Shown: positions 4,563 through 61,524, counted from the first letter of the stretch. The stretch is 64,000 nt of DNA from Escherichia phage RB32 (NC_008515.1), one strand, 5' to 3'. Notes: a model not told the origin generated them from the letters alone. Translations and numbers: made by a program.

Positions 4563-4987
4563 TGCTTCTGATCCCTGAAACTCATGAATTAGTTCTCGAG
4601 AATGTCGAAGCACTTATTTCTGAAGCACAGGGTCGCTTTGACGAATTGTCTTCTGCTTTAAATAAAGACGATATAAATACAATTGTCGAGAATATGCTTG
4701 ATGATGAAACTGATTTAGCAGTTGCATTAGCTTCTATTAATGAAAACATGCCGTTAAATGAATTCATTGTTAAGCACGTTTCAGCTCGTGGTGAAATTAC
4801 ACGTACTAAAGACCGCAAAACACGTGAACGTAATGCATTTCAAACCACTGGGCTGTCTAAAGCAAAACGTAGACAAATTGCTCGCAAAGCTACCAAAACG
4901 AAGATTGCCAATCCAGCAGGTCAATCTCGTGCTCAGCGTAAGCGTAAAAAAGCTCTTAAACGCCGTAAAGCATTAGGATTAAGCTAA
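4562..4987 (+). CDS. 68: Prohead core protein gp68
   Basis: 141 aa; overlapping stop/start junctions with genes 67 and 21. Confidence 0.9.
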
Positions 4988-5640
4988 TGAATGAACCCCA
5001 ATTACTAATTGAAACTTGGGGTCAACCTGGCGAAATTATTGATGGTGTGCCAATGCTCGAATCCCACGATGGAAAAGACTTAGGTTTAAAACCGGGTTTA
5101 TACATCGAAGGAATATTCATGCAAGCGGAAGTCGTCAATAGAAATAAACGTCTTTATCCAAAACGCATATTAGAAAAAGCGGTAAAAGACTATATTAATG
5201 AGCAAGTTTTAACTAAACAAGCTCTCGGAGAATTAAATCATCCTCCACGCGCTAATGTTGACCCGATGCAAGCCGCTATCATTATAGAAGATATGTGGTG
5301 GAAAGGAAATGACGTATACGGACGAGCTCGTGTTATTGAAGGTGACCATGGTCCTGGAGATAAATTAGCAGCTAATATTCGTGCCGGATGGATTCCAGGA
5401 GTTTCTTCTCGTGGATTAGGTTCATTGACTGACACAAATAAAGGTTATCGTATCGTAAACGAAGGATTCAAATTAACTGTAGGTGTTGATGCAGTATGGG
5501 GCCCAAGTGCTCCAGATGCATGGGTAACTCCTAAGGAAATTACCGAATCACAGACGGCGGAAGCCGATACAAGTGCCGATGACGCCTATATGGCTCTCGC
5601 AGAGGCCATGAAAAAAAGCGTTATAAATATTATTATCTAA
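4987..5640 (+). CDS. 21: Prohead core protease gp21
   Basis: 217 aa; recognised sequence; TAATG junction with gene 68. Confidence 0.93.
   Translation: MNEPQLLIETWGQPGEIIDGVPMLESHDGKDLGLKPGLYIEGIFMQAEVVNRNKRLYPKRILEKAVKDYINEQVLTKQALGELNHPPRANVDPMQAAIIIEDMWWKGNDVYGRARVIEGDHGPGDKLAANIRAGWIPGVSSRGLGSLTDTNKGYRIVNEGFKLTVGVDAVWGPSAPDAWVTPKEITESQTAEADTSADDAYMALAEAMKKSVINIII
5622..5629 (+). promoter_or_regulatory. Late promoter TATAAATA inside the 3' end of gene 21, upstream of gene 22
   Basis: Exact TATAAATA 28 nt upstream of the gene 22 ATG. Confidence 0.5.
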
Positions 5641-50889: not shown

Positions 50890-50897
50890 TATAAATA
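50890..50897 (+). promoter_or_regulatory. Late promoter TATAAATA upstream of gene 34
   Basis: Exact TATAAATA 35 nt upstream of the gene 34 ATG. Confidence 0.55.
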
Positions 50898-50931: not shown

Positions 50932-53900
50932 ATGGCCGAGATTAAAAGAAAGTTCAGAGCAGAAGATGGTCTGGACGCAGGTGGCGATAAAATAATCAAC
51001 GTAGCTTTAGCTGATCGTACCGTAGGAACTGACGGTGTTAACGTTGATTACTTAATTCAAGAAAACACAGTTCAGCAATATGATCCAACTCGTGGATATT
51101 TAAAAGATTTTGTAATCATTTATAATAATCGTTTTTGGGCAGCAACGGATAATATTCCAAAACCTGCTGGAAATTTTAATAGAATTCGTTGGAAAGCATT
51201 ACGTACTGATGCCGTATATACAACCGTATCATCTGGACCATATCAATTAAAATCCGGAGAAGCAATTTCAGTAGATACATCAGTTGGCAATGACATTGAG
51301 TTTACTTTACCACCTTCTCCGCTTGATGGAGAAACCGTAATAATTCAAGATATCGGTGGAAAACCTGGCATAAATCAGGTTAAAATAAATTCTTCAAATC
51401 AGAGTATTGTCAATTTTAGAGGTGAACAGGTACGTTCAGTTTTAATGACTCATCCAAAGTCACAGATGGTATTCATTTTTAATAATCGTTTGTGGCAAAT
51501 GTATATTGCTGATTATAGCAGAGAAGCTGCGATTGTTACTCCATCGACTGTATATCAAGCACAATCTAATGATTTTATCGTACGTAGATTTACTTCTGCC
51601 GCACCGATTAATGTTAAACTTCCAAGATTTGCCAATCATGGAGATATCATTAATTTCGTTGATTTAGATAAATTAAATCCACTTTATCATACAATTGTTA
51701 CGACATATGATGAAACAACGTCAGTGCAAGAAGTTGGAACTCATTCCATTGAAGGCCGTACATCGATTGACGGTTTCTTGATGTTTGATGATAATGAGAA
51801 ATTGTGGAGATTGTTTGACGGGGATAGTAAAGCACGTTTACGCATTATAACAACTAATTCTAATATTCGTCCAAATGAAGAAGTTATGGTATTTGGTGCG
51901 AATAACGGAACAGCCCAAACAATTGAGCTTCAGCTTCCAACTGATATTTCTGTTGGTGATACTGTTAAAATTTCCATGAATTACATGAGAAAAGGACAAA
52001 CAGTTAAAATCAAAGCTGCCGGTGAAGATAAAATTGCTTCTTCAGTTCAATTACTGCAATTCCCAAAACGTTCAGAATATCCGCCTGAAGCTGAATGGGT
52101 AACAGTTCAAGAATTAGTTTTTAATGGTGAAACTAATTATGTACCAGTTTTGCAACTTGCTTATATAGAAGATTCTGATAGAAAATACTGGGTTGTACAG
52201 CAAAACGTTCCAACAGTTGAAAGAGTCGATTCTTTAAATAATTCTACTAGAGCAAGATTAGGCGTAATTGCTTTAGCTACACAAGCTCAAGCAAATGCTG
52301 ATTTAGAAAATTCTCCGCAAAAAGAATTGGCAATTACTCCAGAAACGTTAGCTAATCGTACTGCTACTGAAACTCGCAGAGGTATTGCAAGAATAGCAAC
52401 TACTGCTCAAGTAAATCAGAACACCACATTCTCTTTTGCAGATGACCTTATCATCACTCCTAAAAAGCTGAATGAAAGAACTGCTACAGAAACTCGTAGA
52501 GGTGTTGCTGAAATTGCTACGCAGCAAGAAACTAATACAGGTACTGATGATACTACAATCATCACTCCTAAAAAGCTTCAAGCTCGTCAAGGTTCTGAAT
52601 CATTATCTGGTATTGTAACTTTTGTATCTACTGCAGGAGCTGCTCCAGCTTCTAGCCGTGAATTAAATGGTACGAATGTTTATAATAAAAACACTAATAA
52701 TTTAGTTGTTTCACCTAAAGCTTTGGATCAGTATAAAGCTACTCCAACGCAACAAGGCGCAGTAATTTTAGCAGTTGAAAGTGAAGTAATTGCTGGACAG
52801 AGTCAGGAAGGATGGGCAAATGCGGTTGTAACACCAGAAACGTTACATAAAAAGACATCAACTGATGGAAGAATTGGTTTAATTGAAATTGCTACGCAAA
52901 GTGAAGTTAATACAGGAACTGATTATACTCGTGCAGTCACTCCTAAAACTTTAAATGACCGTAGAGCAACTGAAAGTTTAAGTGGTATAGCTGAAATTGC
53001 GACACAAGTTGAATTCGACGCAGGCGTCGACGATACTCGTATCTCTACACCATTAAAAATTAAAACCAGATTTAATAGTACTGATCGTACTTCTGTTGTT
53101 GCTCTATCTGGATTAGTTGAATCAGGAACTCTCTGGGACCATTATACCCTTAATATTCTTGAAGCAAATGAGACACAGCGTGGTACACTTCGTGTAGCTA
53201 CGCAGGTCGAAGCTGCTGCAGGAACATTAGATAATGTTTTAATAACTCCTAAAAAGCTTTTAGGTACTAAATCTACTGAAGCACAGGAAGGTGTTATTAA
53301 AGTTGCAACTCAGTCTGAAACTGTGACTGGAACGTCAGCAAATACTGCTGTATCTCCAAAAAATTTAAAATGGATTGTGCAGAGTGAACCTACTTGGGCA
53401 GCAACTACTCTGATAAGAGGTTTTGTTAAAACTTCGTCTGGTTCAATTACATTCGTTGGTAATGATACAGCCGGTTCTACCCAAGATTTAGAACTGTATG
53501 AGAAAAATAACTATGCAGTATCACCATATGAATTAAACCGTGTATTAGCAAATTATCTGCCGTTAAAAGCAAAAGCGGTAGATAGTAATTTATTAGATGG
53601 TCTAGATTCACTCCAGTTCATTCGTAGGGATATTGCGCAGACAGTTAATGGATCATTAACCTTAACCCAACAAACGAATCTGAGTGCCCCTCTTGTATCA
53701 TCTAGTACTGCTACGTTTGGTGGATCAGTTACAGCAAATAGTGTACTAACTATTTCTAATACTGGAACAGAAACTCATCTGATTTTTGAGAAAGGACCTC
53801 AAACTGGAACAAACCCGGCTCAAACGATGACTGTCAGAGTGTGGGGAAATCAATTTAGTGGGGAATCAGACACAACACGTTCTACCGTATTTGAAGTTAG

Positions 53901-54801
53901 TGATGAAACGTCTAGTCATTTTTATTCTCAGCGTAATAAAGCTGGAAATATAACATTTAATATCAACGGTACAGTAACACCGATAAATGTTAATGCTTCA
54001 GGAACATTGAATGCAAATGGTGCTGCAACATTTGGTAATTCAGTCACTGCAACTGGTGAAATTATTTCTCGAAGCGCAAATGCTTTCCGTGCTATTAACG
54101 GAAATTATGGTTTCATTGTTCGCAATGATGGGTCAGTAACGAATTTTATGCTTACTGCATCGGGTGATCAAACTGGCGGATTTAATGGATTGCGTCCTTT
54201 AGCTATTAATAATGCATCTGGCCAAGTAACGATTGGTGAAAGCTTAATCATTGCAAAAGGTGCTACTATAAGTTCGGGTGGTTTGACTGTTAACTCGAGA
54301 ATTCGTTCTCAGGGTACTAAAACCTCTGATTTATATACCCGTGCGCCAACATCTGATACAGTAGGATTCTGGTCAATCGATATTAATGATTCAGCCACTT
54401 ATAACCAGTTTCCGGGTTATTTTAAAATGGTTGAAAAAACTAATGAAGTGACTGGACTTCCATACTTAGAACGTGGTGAAGAAGTTAAATCTCCTGGTAC
54501 ATTGACTCAGTTTGGTAACACACTTGATTCACTTTACCAAGATTGGATTACTTATCCAACGACCCCAGAAGCACGTACCACTCGCTGGACGCGTACATGG
54601 CAGAAAACTAAAAATTCTTGGTCAAGTTTTGTTCAGGTATTTGATGGAGGTAACCCTCCTCAACCTTCGGATATAGGAGCAATCCCATCTGATAATGGAA
54701 TAATAGGTAATCTTACTATTCGTGATTTCTTACGAATTGGTAATGTTCGCATTATTCCTGACCTAGTGAATAAAACTGTTAAATTTGAATGGGTTGAATA
54801 A
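50932..54801 (+). CDS. 34: Long tail fiber proximal subunit gp34
   Basis: 1289 aa, same as T4 gp34; internal repeats. Confidence 0.95.
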   Translation: MAEIKRKFRAEDGLDAGGDKIINVALADRTVGTDGVNVDYLIQENTVQQYDPTRGYLKDFVIIYNNRFWAATDNIPKPAGNFNRIRWKALRTDAVYTTVSSGPYQLKSGEAISVDTSVGNDIEFTLPPSPLDGETVIIQDIGGKPGINQVKINSSNQSIVNFRGEQVRSVLMTHPKSQMVFIFNNRLWQMYIADYSREAAIVTPSTVYQAQSNDFIVRRFTSAAPINVKLPRFANHGDIINFVDLDKLNPLYHTIVTTYDETTSVQEVGTHSIEGRTSIDGFLMFDDNEKLWRLFDGDSKARLRIITTNSNIRPNEEVMVFGANNGTAQTIELQLPTDISVGDTVKISMNYMRKGQTVKIKAAGEDKIASSVQLLQFPKRSEYPPEAEWVTVQELVFNGETNYVPVLQLAYIEDSDRKYWVVQQNVPTVERVDSLNNSTRARLGVIALATQAQANADLENSPQKELAITPETLANRTATETRRGIARIATTAQVNQNTTFSFADDLIITPKKLNERTATETRRGVAEIATQQETNTGTDDTTIITPKKLQARQGSESLSGIVTFVSTAGAAPASSRELNGTNVYNKNTNNLVVSPKALDQYKATPTQQGAVILAVESEVIAGQSQEGWANAVVTPETLHKKTSTDGRIGLIEIATQSEVNTGTDYTRAVTPKTLNDRRATESLSGIAEIATQVEFDAGVDDTRISTPLKIKTRFNSTDRTSVVALSGLVESGTLWDHYTLNILEANETQRGTLRVATQVEAAAGTLDNVLITPKKLLGTKSTEAQEGVIKVATQSETVTGTSANTAVSPKNLKWIVQSEPTWAATTLIRGFVKTSSGSITFVGNDTAGSTQDLELYEKNNYAVSPYELNRVLANYLPLKAKAVDSNLLDGLDSLQFIRRDIAQTVNGSLTLTQQTNLSAPLVSSSTATFGGSVTANSVLTISNTGTETHLIFEKGPQTGTNPAQTMTVRVWGNQFSGESDTTRSTVFEVSDETSSHFYSQRNKAGNITFNINGTVTPINVNASGTLNANGAATFGNSVTATGEIISRSANAFRAINGNYGFIVRNDGSVTNFMLTASGDQTGGFNGLRPLAINNASGQVTIGESLIIAKGATISSGGLTVNSRIRSQGTKTSDLYTRAPTSDTVGFWSIDINDSATYNQFPGYFKMVEKTNEVTGLPYLERGEEVKSPGTLTQFGNTLDSLYQDWITYPTTPEARTTRWTRTWQKTKNSWSSFVQVFDGGNPPQPSDIGAIPSDNGIIGNLTIRDFLRIGNVRIIPDLVNKTVKFEWVE
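52249..53361 (+). repeat. Tandem ~40-aa repeat units inside gp34 (recurring TPK/TPE...RATE..RG.A.IAT motif)
   Basis: About 8-9 copies of the peptide motif; identical ~20-nt strings such as ATCATCACTCCTAAAAAGCT recur. Confidence 0.7.
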
Positions 54802-54809
54802 GAGGTATT

Positions 54810-55925
54810 ATGGAAAAATTTATGGCAGAGTTTGGACAAGGATATGTCCAAACGCCATTTTTATCGGAAAGCAATTCAGTAAGATATAAAATAAGCATAG
54901 CGGGTTCTTGCCCGCTTTCTACTGCGGGGCCATATGTTAAATTTCAGGATAATCCCGTTGGAAATCAAACATTTAGTGCAGGTCTTCATTTAAGAGTTTT
55001 TGACCCTTCTACAGGAGCATTAGTTGATAGTAAGTCATATGCTTTTTCTGCTTCAAACAATACAACATCTACCGCTTTTGTCAGTTTCATGAATTCTTTG
55101 TCAAACAATAGACTTGTTGCTATATTAACTAGCGGAAAGGTTAATTTTCCTCCTGAAGTGGTATCTTGGTTAAGGGGAGCAGGAACTTCAGTTTTCCCAT
55201 CAGATTCAGTATTGTCAAGATTTGACGTGTCATATGCTGCTTTTTACACTTCTTCTAAAAGAGCTATCGCATTAGAGCATGTTAAACTAAGTAATAGAAA
55301 AAGCACAGATGACTATCAAACTATGTTAGATGTTGTATTTGATAGTTTAGAAGACGTCGGAGCTACAGGATTTCCTAAAAGAACATACGAAAGCGTTGAG
55401 CAATTTATGTCTGCGGTTGGTGGAACTAATAACGAAATTGCGCGATTGCCAACTTCAGCTGCTATAAGTAAACTTTCTGACTACAATTTAATTCCTGGTG
55501 ATGTTCTTTATCTTAAAGCACAACTATATGCTGATGCTGATTTACTTGATCTTGGAACTGCAAATATATCTATTCGTTTTTATGATGCATCAAATGGATA
55601 TATTTCCTCGACCCAAGCTGAGTTTACTGGGCAAGCTGGGTCTTGGGAATTAAAAGAAGATTATGTAGTTGTTCCTGAAAATGCAGTAGGATTTACGATA
55701 TATGCACAAAGAACTGCCCAAGCAGGTCAAGGCGGCATGAGAAATTTAAGCTTTTCTGAAGTATCAAGAAATGGCGGAATTTCGAAACCTGCTGAATTTG
55801 GTGTCAATGGTATTCGTGTTAATTATATCGGTGAATCCTCTTCACCTCCAGATATAATGGTACTTCCTACACAGGCATCGTCTAAAACTGGTAAAGTGTT
55901 TGGACAGGAATTTAGAGAAGTTTAA
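54810..55925 (+). CDS. 35: Long tail fiber hinge connector gp35
   Basis: 371 aa; synteny. Confidence 0.9.
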   Translation: MEKFMAEFGQGYVQTPFLSESNSVRYKISIAGSCPLSTAGPYVKFQDNPVGNQTFSAGLHLRVFDPSTGALVDSKSYAFSASNNTTSTAFVSFMNSLSNNRLVAILTSGKVNFPPEVVSWLRGAGTSVFPSDSVLSRFDVSYAAFYTSSKRAIALEHVKLSNRKSTDDYQTMLDVVFDSLEDVGATGFPKRTYESVEQFMSAVGGTNNEIARLPTSAAISKLSDYNLIPGDVLYLKAQLYADADLLDLGTANISIRFYDASNGYISSTQAEFTGQAGSWELKEDYVVVPENAVGFTIYAQRTAQAGQGGMRNLSFSEVSRNGGISKPAEFGVNGIRVNYIGESSSPPDIMVLPTQASSKTGKVFGQEFREV

Positions 55926-55987: not shown

Positions 55988-56638
55988 ATGGCTGATTTAA
56001 AAGTAGGTTCAACTGTAGGTGGATCTGTCATTTGGCATCAAGGAAATTTTCCATTGAATTCAGCCGGTGACGATGTACTCTACAAATCATTTAAAATATA
56101 TTCAGAATATAATAAACCGCAGGCAGCTGATAACGATTTCGTTTCTAAAGCTAATGGTGGTACTTACGCCGGTCCAATTACTATTAATTACGGGGTAAAT
56201 AGTTATCTTCAATTAAGTAATAATGAAACCCCTATCCGAATTCGTTCTGGTGGCGGCACTGGTAATACTCTTGTAGTTGGCGGCTCTTCCGGCGGTATTA
56301 GTTTTAGACCTGCAGGTAGTGAAATCACTACTGGACAAATTACTATTACGCCAGAAGGTTTGACAACATTTACCAGGGCTGTAACGGCTCCATCGGTAAC
56401 TGTTACATCTACTCCTTCCGCAGCATCTGATGTTACTCGCAAAGATTATGTTGATGGAGCAATAAATACTGTTACAGCAAATGCAAACTCTAGGGTATTA
56501 CGCTCTGGAGACACTATGACAGGAAATTTAACTGCGCCAAACCTTTTTTCACAGAATCCTGCATCTCAACCTTCACACGTTCCACGATTTGACCAAATCG
56601 TAATTAAGGATTCTGTTCAAGATTTCGGCTATTATTAA
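55988..56638 (+). CDS. 36: Long tail fiber distal connector gp36
   Basis: 216 aa; synteny. Confidence 0.9.
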
Positions 56639-56646
56639 GAGGACTT

Positions 56647-59600
56647 ATGGCTACTTTAAAACAAATACAATTTAAAAGAAGCAAAATTGCAGGTCAACGT
56701 CCTGCAGCTTCAGTATTAGCCGAAGGTGAATTGGCTATAAACTTAAAAGATAAAACAATTTTCACAAAAGATGACTCAGGTAGTGTTATAGAATTAGGTT
56801 TAAAATATGGAGGAACTATAAATGGATCTTTAGAGGTTACAGAAAATATAACTGGAACTTTAATTGGAAATTCTAGTACAGCTACTAAATTGCAAACATC
56901 TAGGAAAATTAATGGTATATCTTTTGATGGATCAAAGGACATTACACTAACTCCATCTGATATAAATGTAAATAGTACAACATTTATAAAAAATAACGGC
57001 GAATTACCCGTTGATGCTAATTTAGATACATACGGGCCCATTGAAGAATATCTTGGTGTTTGGTCGAAATCTACTTCAACAAATGCGCAACCAGCAAATA
57101 AATTCCCAGAAGAAAATGCCGTAGGTGTACTAGAAGTATTTGTGGCCGGCCAATTTGCTGGCACTCAGCGTTATACTGTAAGATCTGGTAACGTCTATAT
57201 TCGTTCCTTATCTGCTAAATGGAATGGCGTCGATGGTCCATGGGGTGTGTGGCGTAATGTTCAAGCGTCAACTCGTCCACTTTCACAAACGATTGACCTT
57301 GATAGCTTGGGAGAATTAGAACATTGTGGCTTATGGAGAAACAGTTCAAGCGCAATCGCATCATTTGATCGCCATTATCCAGAAGAAGGATCAGCCGCAC
57401 AAGGATTTTTAGAAATATTTGAAGGTGGTTTATACACGAGAACGCAGCGATATACTACCCGCATGGGTATGGTTTATACTCGTTGTCTCGCTGCCGCATG
57501 GGATGCTAGTGCACCTAAGTGGGAGGAATGGAAGCAGGTTGGTCATGGCACACCAGCGACTTTCTATGACGGAGATCTGAATGATTTTAAAACTCCTGGG
57601 TTATATAATATTTTAGGCACTGATGCCGTTATTAACTGTCCTACCGGTGAAGGTTTGCCGACTGTTATTGTTGGTTTGCTGGAAGTTAAACAGCGTGCTT
57701 CTGGCGGTGCTATTTTCCAAAAATTTACTACTGCCGGAACGGGTGCAACTACTCGCGATCGTATTTTTGAGCGTGCATATACTGGTGGTGTGTGGGGTGC
57801 ATGGAACGAAGTATATACATCTTATTCTCTGCCAATTACTTTGGGTATGGGTGGTGTTAAAGCTCAATTAGCGGAGCTAGATTGGAACACATTTGATTTT
57901 GTTCCTGGCAGTATGTTTAGCGTTCCTTTGAACAAAATAAAGAACATGCCAGCAAATATGGATTGGGGTACGATTGACGGAAACTTGATCATGTTTTCCG
58001 TTGGACCAAGCGAGGGTGACGGAACAGGTCGAACAATTCAATTATGGCGTGGAAGAGCAACACAATCAGACTATCGTTATTTTGTTGTTCGTATTACTGG
58101 ACCTTTGACGAATAGAACTTGTACAGCTCGACGCGTTGTTCTTGAAGATGGTCGCCACACATGGACAGCTCAACAAGATTTTAATGGCGCAGTTAACTTC
58201 GGTGCTCCTACCAATTTTAACTCTACTGTTAATCTTAATAACACTACCACTTTTAAAACAGCAGTTAAATTCCGCTCATCTAATGCATTCCGTATGTATG
58301 CCGGAAAATTTGGTACAATTTTCCGTAATGATGGAGAGAGTCTTTATATTCTTTCCACCGACGAAGATGATCAAGATGGAAACTTTAATACAAATAGACC
58401 TTTCCGTTATGAATTAAGAACTGGTGATGTTACTTTGGGTGGTGCTGTTGGTGCTAACGTTTTAAAATTAAAACGTGATTCTCTCACCGCATTTTTTGGC
58501 GGTGATATTAACATGAAAGGCACGATGACTTTTGACGCCGGACGTTTAGGATCACGAGATTATTTTAAATTTAACCATTGGGGTGATAGCAATAACGCTC
58601 GTGATAACATCATCCAGTTAGAAGATAGCCAAGGCGCCCATTTTTCCACTGAACGTACTTTAGCGACAGGTGCAATTAAAACTCGTTTCTTTGGCGAAAC
58701 ATTCACTGATGGTACATTATACCTAAATCAGATGAATAATAGCTCTGAACGATTCTCTATCAACAATTGGGGAAATTCAGAAGTTGGTCGCGCGGCAGTA
58801 TTGGAAGTCGGCGATTCAAAAGGTTATCACTTCTATGCTGAACGCAGGACAGATAACAGTTTGATGTTTGATGTTGCTGGTTCTTTGATCGTGCATGGAC
58901 CTAGCGGAATAACCATCAAAAACTCAACTGGTGCACGACATATCTGGTTTAGAGATGATAGCGATGCAGAAAAGGCTGTTATCTGGGCTACAGATGAGGG
59001 TATTTTACATATTCGCAATAATCATGGGGGTTCATTTAGTCATCACTTCCAGGGTGCAATGATTAAAGCGGGAGAGCGTGTTCCATATAGTGGTGAATAC
59101 GCTCTTATCCGTGGTAATATTTCCGGTGGTGCATGGGTAGACTGGCGAGATCGTCCGGCTGGATTGTTGGTAGACTGTCAGGACTCACGAAATCAAGCAT
59201 ATAGCATTTGGAAAGCTACTCATTGGGGCGAACAGCACCTTGCGGCGATGGGTGTTCATGCTGGCGGTGGTAATCCTCAGGTTGTATTGCATGTGGGTGG
59301 GAGTGATTATGCATTTGCATTTAACGGTGATTTTACTGCTGGTGCTGCTGTATATTGTAACGACGTTTATATTCGTTCTGACCGTCGTCTGAAAATTAAT
59401 GTTGAAGACTACGAAGAGAATGCGGTGGATAAGGTAAATAAACTCAAAGTTAAAACCTATGATAAAGTTAAATCTCTTTCTGACCGCGAAGTTATCGGCC
59501 ATGAGATTGGTATTATCGCACAGGATTTGCAAGAAGTATTACCGGAAGCTGTTAGCACTTCTAGTGTCGGATCTCAGGATAACCCAGAAGAAATTTTAAC

Positions 59601-59730
59601 AATTTCTAACTCTGCTGTGAACGCGCTTTTAATTAAGGCTATCCAAGAAATGAGCGAAGAAATTAAAGAATTAAAAACGCCTTTCTTCACTAAAATTGCT
59701 CGCAAAATTAGTAATTATTTTAAATTCTAA
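56647..59730 (+). CDS. 37: Long tail fiber distal subunit gp37 with C-terminal intramolecular chaperone domain (T2 type)
   Basis: 1027 aa; N-terminus [16 protein letters not shown]; C-terminal ~110 aa ([14 protein letters not shown]...) resembles self-cleaving chaperone domains of tail fibers. Confidence 0.92.
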
Positions 59731-59736
59731 CAACAA

Positions 59737-59752
59737 GGGGCTTTGCCCCTTT
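59737..59752 (+). terminator. Hairpin GGGGC-TTT-GCCCC after gene 37, merging into the gene 38 SD
   Basis: Stem-loop then TTTGGAGAAAATT-ATG; same architecture as the uvsW/uvsW.1 junction. Confidence 0.45.
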
Positions 59753-59762
59753 GGAGAAAATT

Positions 59763-60563
59763 ATGGCAGTAGTTGGAGTTCCTGGCTGGATTGGAAGTTC
59801 AGCCGTAAATGAAACGGGTCAGCGCTGGATGAGTCAAGCAGCTGGTCAATTAAGATTGGGTGTTCCTTGCTGGATGAGTCAATTTGCAGGTCGCTCAAGA
59901 GAAATTATTCATACACTTGGAGCGGACCATAACTTTAATGGTCAATGGTTCCGAGATAGATGTTTTGAGGCAGGTAGTGCACCTATAGTGTTTAATATTA
60001 CCGGAAATTTGGTATCATATTCTAGAGACGTTCCTTTATTCTTCATGTACGGAGATACACCTAATGAATATGTTCAGTTGAATATTGGTGGCGGCGTCCA
60101 TATGTGGGGTAGAGGTGGACAAGGTGGATGGACTCATTCCGGCGGAGATGGTAATGGTCAACAAGGTGGTCATTGTATTCAAAATGACATCGGTGGACGA
60201 TTAAGAATTAATAACGGTGGAGTAATTTGTGGTGGAGGTGGAGGTGGAGGTGGTATCGCTTATCGTCCTCACTCTGGTGCAAAATGGCAAGATATTGGTG
60301 GTGGTGGAGGAAGACCATTTGGCCCAGGAGGAGGCGGAGGTTATTCCGGCGGCGCAGCTTCTTATGATGGCCCAGGAGGTGGTTATAATTATGGTAATGC
60401 TCACTCTGGCCAGGGTGGTGATGCTGGCGCAAATGGACAAAATGCCTGGCATGATGGCGGTAAAGTTCTAAAAGTTGGAGCTGGTGGCGCTGCCGGATAT
60501 GCTGTTATAGGATCAGCTCCAACATGGCAAAATGTTGGAGTAATATATGGTCCAAGGGTATAA
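59763..60563 (+). CDS. 38: gp38 receptor-binding adhesin (T2/T6 type, glycine-rich motifs)
   Basis: ORF track starts at TTG 59751; ATG at 59763 gives 266 aa starting [19 protein letters not shown]; poly-Gly motifs separate variable segments. Confidence 0.9.
60229..60342 (+). repeat. Glycine codon tracts (GGT/GGA/GGC runs) encoding the gp38 glycine-rich motifs
   Basis: Runs at about 60231-60254, 60297-60312 and 60323-60340; they generate the spurious antisense/alternate-frame ORFs in the track. Confidence 0.75.
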
Positions 60564-60594
60564 TTTTGAATAAATATCCTTAAAAGGAGGGTCT

Positions 60595-61251
60595 ATGGCA
60601 GCACCTAGAATATCATTTTCGCCCTCTGATATTCTATTTGGTGTTCTAGATCGCTTGTTCAAAGATAACGCTACCGGGAAAGTTCTTGCTTCCCGGGTAG
60701 CTGTCGTAATTCTTTTGTTTATGATGGCGATTGTTTGGTATAGGGGAGATAGTTTCTTTGAGTACTATAAGCAATCAAAGTATGAAACATACAGTGAAAT
60801 TATTGAAAAGGAAAGAAATGCACGCTTTGAATCTGTCGCCCTGGAACAACTCCAGATAGTTCACATATCATCTGAGGCAGACTTTAGTGCGGTGTATTCT
60901 TTCCGCCCTAAAAACTTAAACTATTTTGTTGATATTATAGCATATGAAGGAAAATTACCTTCAACAATAAGTGAAAAATCACTTGGAGGATATCCTGTTG
61001 ATAAAACTATGGATGAATATGCAGTTCATTTAAATGGACGTCATTATTATTCCAACTCAAAATTTGCTTTTTTACCAACTAAAAAGCCTACTCCCGAAAT
61101 AAACTACATGTACAGTTGTCCATATTTTAATTTGGATAATATCTATGCTGGAACAATAACCATGTACTGGTATAGAAATGATCATATAAGTAATGACCGC
61201 CTTGAATCAATATGTGCTCAGGCGGCCAGAATATTAGGAAGGGCTAAATAA
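60595..61251 (+). CDS. t: Holin T
   Basis: 218 aa; recognised T4 holin sequence with one N-terminal TMD and large periplasmic domain. Confidence 0.95.
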   Translation: MAAPRISFSPSDILFGVLDRLFKDNATGKVLASRVAVVILLFMMAIVWYRGDSFFEYYKQSKYETYSEIIEKERNARFESVALEQLQIVHISSEADFSAVYSFRPKNLNYFVDIIAYEGKLPSTISEKSLGGYPVDKTMDEYAVHLNGRHYYSNSKFAFLPTKKPTPEINYMYSCPYFNLDNIYAGTITMYWYRNDHISNDRLESICAQAARILGRAK

Positions 61252-61524
61252 TTATTTGTTTGTATACATTTCTAAATATCTATATACACCCTCAAAACCC
61301 TCGTTGAATTCGTCGATGAGGGTTTTCTTATCTTCTTGAGTTAATTCAGAAACAATTTTACGGAATGAATTCTGATTTAATTTTCTACCTTCATGTGTTA
61401 CTCCAATCTCATTCAGAAATGCAATAAAATTAGCACGATTCTCAACAATATCTTCTCTGGAAAATTTAATCAAAATAGACGCAACAGTAATAATTTCACG
61501 AACTGTATCAATGTTTTTATTCAT
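61252..61524 (-). CDS. asiA: AsiA anti-sigma70 factor
   Basis: 90 aa; recognised sequence MNKNIDTVREIITVASILIKFSRED. Confidence 0.95.
   Translation of the reverse strand: MNKNIDTVREIITVASILIKFSREDIVENRANFIAFLNEIGVTHEGRKLNQNSFRKIVSELTQEDKKTLIDEFNEGFEGVYRYLEMYTNK

Follow-up and report, generated by a model that had tools for sequence, protein, structure and literature searches.

The long tail fibre tip locus of an RB32/RB33-type phage: a gp37 with a predicted chaperone domain and a mosaic gp38 adhesin

Organization of the tail fibre tip locus

The stretch of DNA analysed here, 64,000 nucleotides presented as Escherichia phage RB32 (NC_008515.1) and referred to as the window, carries a phage tail fibre tip locus at positions 56647-60563. 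The locus comprises gene 37 (g37), whose open reading frame (ORF) at 56647-59730 encodes the long tail fibre distal subunit precursor gp37 of 1027 amino acids (aa) with a calculated mass of 112.9 kDa, and gene 38 (g38), which encodes the tail-fibre tip adhesin gp38. The ORF of gp38 extends from an ATG at 59763 to a stop at 60563 and corresponds to 266 aa and 27.0 kDa, in agreement with the length given in an earlier first-pass annotation of the same DNA. Both genes, and the features described below within and between them, are on the + strand. Upstream in the same frame there is a TTG at 59751, which overlaps the ribosome-binding site of g38, GGAG (59753-59756, read from the sequence), and the gene likewise starts at the ATG in KM607001.1, the record of Enterobacteria phage RB33. 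g38 lies directly after g37 and before the holin gene t, the position expected for an adhesin gene of the T2/T6/S16 type. The identity of gp37 is evident from the match of PHROG 1699 ('long tail fiber protein distal subunit') to aa 1-1022 (expectation value, E, 1.7e-233), and it is also annotated as gp37 in KM607001.1.

The locus is a 100% match to KM607001.1 (host E. coli B, species Tequatrovirus RB32), in which genes 34, 35, 36, 37, 38, t and asiA are annotated around it. Over the 63.2 kb compared, the window and the RB33 record differ by two 1-nucleotide indels only, and the locus is therefore that of a laboratory phage already sequenced and annotated. One of these is at window position 60114 (KM607001.1 position 156231), where the window reads GAGGTGGAC and the record GAGTGGAC, the latter being without one G. 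The missing G frameshifts g38 in KM607001.1, and the 'tail fiber adhesin' annotated there has 146 aa as compared to 266 aa in the window. An exact-sequence look-up of gp38 in a public assembly index, with both the 266-aa and the 270-aa starts, found neither version on record.

Family membership and architecture of gp38

The profile searches place gp38 among the T-even adhesins over its whole length. The Pfam GP38 adhesin family (PF05268) matches aa 47-266 with E 6.1e-69 and 232.6 bits (profile 1-218/218), and Gp38_N (PF21721) matches aa 1-42 with E 9.8e-21 and 73.9 bits (profile 1-40/40), the cut-off being 25 bits for each family. PHROG 2056, 'tail fiber protein; host specificity', also matches gp38 (E 2.1e-113). 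Such agreement goes far beyond what chance would give. Among solved structures, 9V85, the receptor-binding domain of PP01 gp38 (PMC12892980), aligns to aa 38-266 (E 8.5e-73), and 6F45_D, the gp38 of S16, aligns to aa 5-263 (E 3.8e-49). BLASTP of gp38 against T4 gp38 detected no similarity, the best E being 0.78 over 50 residues with 14% identity. These results uphold the earlier proposal of an adhesin unlike the T4 arrangement, for which an alignment with the T4 chaperone-type gp38 had been set beforehand as the refuting outcome.

The gp38 of S16 and PP01 is known to consist of a three-helix N-terminal bundle, from which three tryptophans plug into the gp37 trimer (as described for S16) with one gp38 per trimer, and of a central beta-helix with a polyglycine-II sandwich that projects variable loops (PMC6851490, PMC12892980). 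By homology, the gp38 of the window would adopt the same combination of beta-helix and polyglycine-II sandwich. Glycine contributes 71 of its 266 residues and 53 of the 134 residues in aa 115-248, with runs of eight, five and five glycines.

The conservation pattern was derived from an alignment of 13 gp38 sequences (the window, wV7, AV119, T6, T2, RB9, AR1, Ac3, RB18, Bas39, IME08, Merlin and IME540). The attachment domain (59763-59900, aa 1-46), which is of the T6/RB9 subtype and contains the PF21721 match, includes the tryptophans W9 (59787), W22 (59826) and W37 (59871), all invariant in 13/13 sequences. It is followed by a linker and the first part of the central beta-helix (59901-60104, aa 47-114), which were aligned to both 9V85 and 6F45_D. 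From there onwards, glycine-rich motifs (GRM1 to GRM5) are separated by hypervariable segments (HVS1 to HVS4). GRM1, WGRGGQG (60105-60125, aa 115-121), has a mean column entropy of 0.44 bits with GRGG116-119 and G121 invariant, and leads into HVS1 (60126-60164, aa 122-134; 1.47 bits). A conserved beta-helix core (60165-60230, aa 135-156; 0.64 bits), in which GG135-136 and LRI147-149 are invariant, precedes the poly-Gly motif GRM2 (60231-60251, aa 157-163; 0.06 bits), whose run continues to G164 and whose residues G157-162 are invariant. GRM2 is equivalent to the S16 helix-3 GGGGGGGG (PMC6851490).

The most variable part of the protein is HVS2 (60252-60296, aa 164-178; 1.97 bits), which holds R168 and S171-G172-A173. 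Next to it, GRM3, GGGGGRPFG (60297-60323, aa 179-187), is invariant in 13/13 sequences with an entropy of 0.00. The HVS3 region (60324-60407, aa 188-215; 1.56 bits) has the invariant residues G190, G205 and G207 embedded in it, and is bounded by GRM4, GQGG (60408-60419, aa 216-219), where G216, G218 and G219 are invariant. HVS4 (60420-60482, aa 220-240; 1.52 bits), which holds D220, is followed by GRM5, GGAAGYAV (aa 241-248; 0.65 bits), and the conserved C-terminal motif (aa 249-266; 0.62 bits), together at 60483-60560; conservation of the C-terminal extremity of gp38 has been described by Trojet et al. (PMC3157838). The mean column entropy is therefore 0.00-0.65 bits in the glycine motifs as compared to 1.47-1.97 bits in the four intervening segments, and further glycines are invariant besides those named. 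gp38 is a glycine-motif scaffold with four hypervariable segments between the motifs, which agrees with the first-pass description of conserved poly-Gly motifs separating variable segments. The alignment with T2, T6 and related adhesins, recommended there as a check, has mapped these segments.

Mosaic structure of g38 and its relatives

The attachment domain and the receptor-binding part of gp38 have different closest relatives. Over aa 1-46, the identity is 98% to both T6 and RB9, 65% to T2, and 52% to both wV7 and AV119. Over aa 115-266, it is 100% to wV7 and 95% to AV119, as compared to 57% to T6, 56% to RB9, 54% to AR1 and 46% to T2. In the intervening aa 47-114, the identity to T2 is 38%. 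The 'T2 type' of the first-pass annotation is accordingly right for the architecture, while the subtype is not that of T2, the attachment domain being T6/RB9-like and the receptor-binding part belonging to the OmpA class of wV7 and AV119.

Identities calculated in 60-nucleotide blocks locate a recombination junction at 59900-59943. As far as about 59942 the gene resembles that of RB9/T6, and from 59943 to the stop codon (60563) it is 100% nucleotide-identical to wV7 (HM997020). g38 is a recombinant in which a T6/RB9-type attachment domain is joined to a wV7-identical receptor-binding part. Since g38 of the window is full-length and identical to wV7 across position 60114, it is probably KM607001.1 that is in error there. 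Modular shuffling of this kind is known from the work of Tetart and Krisch and of Trojet et al. (PMC3157838). Many phages match the window with 90-96% over g37 and the start of g38, and diverge at window position 60085. A tblastn search with the C-terminal 158 aa of gp38 returned 143 phage records, 73 of which are at least 90% identical; the receptor-binding allele of this gp38 is therefore common.

The similarity to wV7 is not confined to g38. Over window 59849-61220, from g38 through nearly all of t, the identity to wV7 is 98.1%, and it is 93% beyond; on the upstream side, most of g37 fails to align with its wV7 counterpart. It thus seems that the exchange took in both the receptor-binding part of g38 and t. 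In the Dhakavirus IME540 (MT150133.1), a phage of another genus, the gp37 tip is 95%, the gp38 attachment domain 100% and the receptor-binding part 80% identical to those of the window, indicating that the tip module crosses genus boundaries. The exact transfer of the receptor-binding part from a wV7-like phage suggests that the junction near codons 46-60 may be a natural 'plug-in' point, which could serve for fibre retargeting.

The C-terminal domain of gp37

The chaperone/autoprotease domain predicted at the end of gp37 by Pfam and by alignment to 6F45_A occupies aa 911-1027 (59377-59727; 117 aa, 13.2 kDa). The Pfam family Peptidase_S74 (PF13884, 'Chaperone of endosialidase') matches aa 911-969 with E 1.2e-14 and 54.8 bits over profile positions 1-57/58, above its curated cut-off of 22 bits. 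The domain opens with S911-DRRL-K916, a Ser-x4-Lys dyad with its residues five apart (Ser911, 59377-59379; Lys916, 59392-59394), and contains GIIAQ at aa 955-959 (59509-59523). A Ser-Lys dyad together with a G(V/I)IAQ trimerisation motif is the hallmark of the endosialidase-type intramolecular chaperone (PMC3742440). In alignments of the window gp37 with those of T2, T6, wV7, AV119, RB9, IME540 and AR1, the Ser, the Lys, G..AQ and LPE..V are invariant, and the sequence upstream of DVYIR is strongly variable between subtypes. Judged by these features, the C-terminus of gp37 is a predicted intramolecular chaperone of the endosialidase/tailspike kind.

The C-terminal 200 aa of gp37 align to S16 gp37 (PDB 6F45_A; E 1.9e-12), with DVYIR^SDRRLK opposite the S16 cleavage site DLNVS^SDRRIKK. 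S16 gp37 is reported to be cut between the two serines of S^SDRRIKK, its last 113 residues being autocleaved, and the equivalence of DVYIR^SD has been given (PMC7917993). The gp37 of T2 and of T6 is also proteolytically processed (PMC3157838). By this alignment, autocleavage is predicted between Arg910 (ending at 59376) and Ser911 (starting at 59377). By homology, it would release the 117-aa fragment of 13.2 kDa and leave a mature chain of 99.7 kDa, whose last strand, DVYIR (59362-59376, aa 906-910), is the predicted docking surface for gp38. An autoproteolytic-type chaperone domain at the end of gp37 had been recognized in the first-pass annotation from 59350, which is at aa 902, with a quoted string starting at aa 908; its presence is borne out, and the approximate length of 110 aa becomes 117 aa when measured from Ser911 to the C-terminus. 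As compared to this protein, T4 gp37 is alike in the first 64 aa (77%) with some weak internal matches, and it has Collar and Phage_fiber domains without an S74 domain.

Receptor specificity

The receptor of this isolate, which had been posed as an open question, was in fact answered in 2011. Trojet et al. amplified RB33 g38 with a T6-type primer and reported it as identical to g38 of RB32, a phage that requires OmpA and is sensitive to the composition of lipopolysaccharide (LPS), its infection being affected by waaG/waaP LPS mutants (PMC3157838). In the same study, eight RB5 x RB33 recombinants, in which the variable segments were replaced by those of RB32/33, gained the OmpA/LPS-dependent host range, and a 400-bp block with the four variable segments was found to transfer host range to RB5. 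Chimeras ST403 and ST404, the minimal ones derived from RB32, recognise both OmpA and LPS (PMC3157838). The earlier statement that the variable segments encode the specificity is thus confirmed by published recombinants of this very gene.

AV119 is OmpA-dependent and belongs with FL08 to a broad 'type 1' adhesin group (Lutz et al. 2025, PMC12032242), and the receptor-binding part of the window gp38 clusters with AV119 'type 1' by its 95% identity over aa 115-266. The OmpA contacts modelled for AV119 by AlphaFold and molecular dynamics (MD) are R165, S168-A170, R181, D217 and R262 (PMC12032242). All of them are kept here (7/7), as R168, S171, G172, A173, R184, D220 and R265. By homology to the AV119 model, the loops of gp38 would contact OmpA through these residues.

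Proposed mechanism and alternative explanations

The module is the long tail fibre distal tip of the T2/T6/S16 architecture. Its mode of action would combine chaperone-assisted trimerisation of gp37, Ser/Lys autocleavage at Arg910|Ser911, docking of one gp38 by three tryptophans, and recognition of OmpA by variable loops on a polyglycine-II scaffold, a reading to which a probability of about 0.93 is assigned. gp37 would be made as the 1027-aa precursor, and its last 117 residues would help three chains to fold into a trimeric beta-helical fibre. The chaperone would then cut itself off at the bond between Arg910 and Ser911, in a reaction that depends on Ser911/Lys916, and this cleavage would expose the DVYIR tip. 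One gp38 monomer is expected to dock on the DVYIR tip via W9, W22 and W37 of its N-terminal helical bundle; by homology, the stoichiometry of gp37 to gp38 would be 3:1. The C-terminal part of gp38 would form a beta-helix carrying a polyglycine-II 'sandwich' of the invariant glycine motifs, with the hypervariable segments as distal loops contacting the receptor. A location of gp38 at the tip of the virion fibre is predicted here, such a location being known for T2 and S16 only; for T2-type phages, both this location and the loss of adsorption after anti-gp38 treatment are already in the cited literature.

Several points weigh against this interpretation. The literature yielded no experiment on the processing of RB33 gp37, and its cleavage is predicted by analogy with S16 and T2. 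For the OmpA contact residues, the source is AlphaFold/MD models of AV119 and not a solved complex. The LPS dependence of RB32 may be indirect, as Trojet et al. point out that the protein content of the outer membrane changes with the composition of LPS (PMC3157838). Finally, g38 is frameshifted in the deposited genome of RB33, which, if correct, would mean a truncated adhesin, although the window and the PCR-based (polymerase chain reaction) work of 2011 argue otherwise.

Of the alternatives, the one that survives best accepts gp38 as a real adhesin with a primary receptor other than OmpA, namely Tsx, OmpC, OmpF, FadL or the LPS core alone. Minor alterations of the variable segments can switch or add receptors, as in PST as compared to T6 and SV76 as compared to T2, and RB32 infection is also altered in the waaG/waaP mutants (PMC3157838); moreover, PP01, the closest solved structure, binds OmpC (PMC12892980). 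However, RB33 g38 has been reported as identical to that of the OmpA-requiring RB32 (PMC3157838), and the OmpA-dependent AV119 is 95% identical over aa 115-266. The identity over the same residues is low to T6 (Tsx; 57%), to T2 (FadL/OmpF; 46%) and to AR1 (54%), whose gp38 is annotated as best matched to PP01. Another primary receptor is therefore considered improbable.

A still smaller chance is given to the S74-like domain being retained uncleaved on gp37 as a degenerate chaperone, with gp38 binding elsewhere. No direct data on RB33 processing were found, and the region just before the cleavage motif differs strongly between subtypes, which would fit such a protein. Against it, Ser911, Lys916 (+5) and GIIAQ are intact and invariant across the subtypes, and the chaperone domain hardly differs from that of T6, whose gp37 is described as cleaved (PMC3157838).

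Equally little probability attaches to the view that RB33 gp38 is truly truncated to 146 aa as in KM607001.1, the ORF of the window being in error. It takes the deposited genome at its word, as this lacks one G at 60114 and its annotated coding sequence ends after 146 codons. With the extra G, however, gp38 covers the Pfam GP38 profile from end to end (1-218/218), and the gene agrees with wV7 at 100% of its nucleotides from 59943 through the stop. PCR clones of RB33 g38 were, furthermore, functional host-range donors in 2011 (PMC3157838), and RB33 plates on E. coli B, for which a working adhesin would presumably be needed.

That gp38 is instead a T4-type assembly chaperone absent from the virion, with receptor recognition residing in gp37, is barely credible: g38 does occupy the position of T4 gene 38 between g37 and t, and several database records name its homologues 'distal long tail fiber assembly catalyst', but the best BLASTP hit to T4 gp38 has E 0.78, gp38 matches adhesin families and two solved adhesin structures over its full length, T4 gp37 has Collar and Phage_fiber repeats without S74 and only its first 64 aa in common, and swaps of the variable segments of RB33 g38 change receptor use (PMC3157838).

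Within the preferred reading of an OmpA-recognising tip adhesin, a further proposal can be considered. The set of variable segments could constitute a true dual-receptor adhesin, in which separate distal loops make direct contact with the OmpA loops and with the LPS core, and the exact wV7-type transfer could make codons 46-60 a plug-in point. This combination is regarded as speculative and rather unlikely. Alternatively, the LPS effect would be indirect and arise from an altered display of OmpA in the waaG/waaP mutants.

Neighbouring genes and further observations on the fibre proteins

Upstream of g37, the ORFs of the fibre cluster are gp34 (50932-54801, 1289 aa), gp35 (54810-55925, 371 aa) and gp36 (55988-56638, 216 aa). 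Downstream of g38, the ORF of holin t (60595-61251, 218 aa) matches PF11031 with E 5.9e-117. Between the g37 stop and the g38 Shine-Dalgarno sequence, there is a GC hairpin, GGGGC-TTT-GCCCC (59737-59749), recognized from the sequence and by RNA folding; the fold of 59726-59775, which contains this stem, has a free energy of -13.6 kcal/mol. A terminator scan of 59300-61400 called none between g37 and g38, the hairpin at 59737-59749 included. A putative effect of the hairpin on mRNA stability or translational coupling could be envisaged.

In 59300-61400, sigma-70-like promoter sites are fewer than in shuffled sequence. T4 late-promoter-like TATAAATA motifs are present at 50890 and 55957, upstream of g34 and g36 only, and none is found directly upstream of g37 or g38. 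g38 is therefore probably transcribed from the late promoter of g36. The arrangement suggests that g36, g37 and g38 are co-transcribed.

The shaft of gp37 contains two tandem repeats of about 85 aa, at aa 125-208 and 217-301 (57019-57549), which are 41% identical (E 8e-21) in a direct pairwise comparison. A much weaker third copy is seen at aa 310-392 (possibly to 57822). A self-BLAST of the whole gp37 for internal repeats was empty, and it was the pairwise comparison of the suspected units that revealed the repeat. No Pfam family matched the repeat region. PHROG 4618, 'tail collar fiber protein', spans aa 106-325. The repeats may represent knob-like side domains. Further along the chain, aa 518-631 (58198-58539) resemble the C-terminal trimerisation domain of gp34 (PF21446, E 1.4e-14; PDB 4UXE, E 4.1e-12), an apparent example of fibre modules common to gp34 and gp37.

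In the hinge protein gp35, aa 58-112 (54981-55145) match the Pfam family ILEI (interleukin-like EMT inducer / FAM3-like) with E 6.7e-8 and 33.4 bits, as compared to a cut-off of 27, a family name that one would not expect of a phage hinge protein. The second indel relative to KM607001.1 is at window position 5611, at the 3' end of gene 21 (ORF 4987-5640), where the window has a run of A7 and the record one of A6. The prohead protease gp21 consequently has 217 aa ending in MKKSVINIII in the window and 212 aa ending in MKKAL in KM607001.1, and the version of the window may contain a homopolymer error.

Significance

Adhesins of the gp38 type decide the host range of T-even phages, and are used to predict and to engineer it for phage therapy and diagnostics. 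The biology of this locus is already known, the architecture having been described in the 1980s, the structure in 2018 and 2026, and the receptor of this g38 in 2011; the outcome is a correct annotation and no discovery. The one practical novelty, modest but real, is that KM607001.1 probably carries a one-base error in g38; receptor-predicting pipelines that use gp38 sequences would mishandle this record. If true, the dual-receptor and plug-in ideas would extend known work and would not open a new category.

Comparison with known systems

The chaperones of endosialidases and tailspikes (PF13884, a family that also includes the eukaryotic MYRF) have in common with the C-terminus of gp37 the catalytic dyad, the G(V/I)IAQ motif, the C-terminal place on a trimeric beta-helical fibre and the Pfam match. 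Unlike in those proteins, the cleavage of gp37 here would in addition form the site at which a separate subunit, the adhesin, docks.

In T4, genes 37 and 38 hold the same position in the fibre cluster, but T4 gp38 is an unrelated chaperone and T4 gp37 bears its own receptor-binding tip. The idea of an N-terminus common to T4 gp38 and T2-type gp38 was dropped, BLASTP giving no such similarity.

T2, which uses FadL/OmpF, shares with the window the processed gp37, the glycine-rich gp38 cap, the SDxRLK cleavage motif and the glycine-motif scaffold. It differs in subtype throughout, and its gp37 has 1341 aa as compared to 1027 aa here. In S16 (6F45) and PP01 (9V85), gp38 is homologous over the whole length; both phages bind OmpC, and their variable loops are unlike those of the window.

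The Tsx-specific phages T6 (PMC3157838) and RB9 have an attachment domain that is 98% identical, a gp37 chaperone whose last ~45 residues are nearly identical, and the same gene order. They differ in the receptor-binding part, which is 56-57% identical and carries other variable segments. The converse holds for wV7 and AV119, where the receptor-binding part is 100% (wV7) and 95% (AV119) identical to that of the window and the attachment domain, at 52% identity, belongs to another subtype of gp37 tip and gp38 N-terminus.

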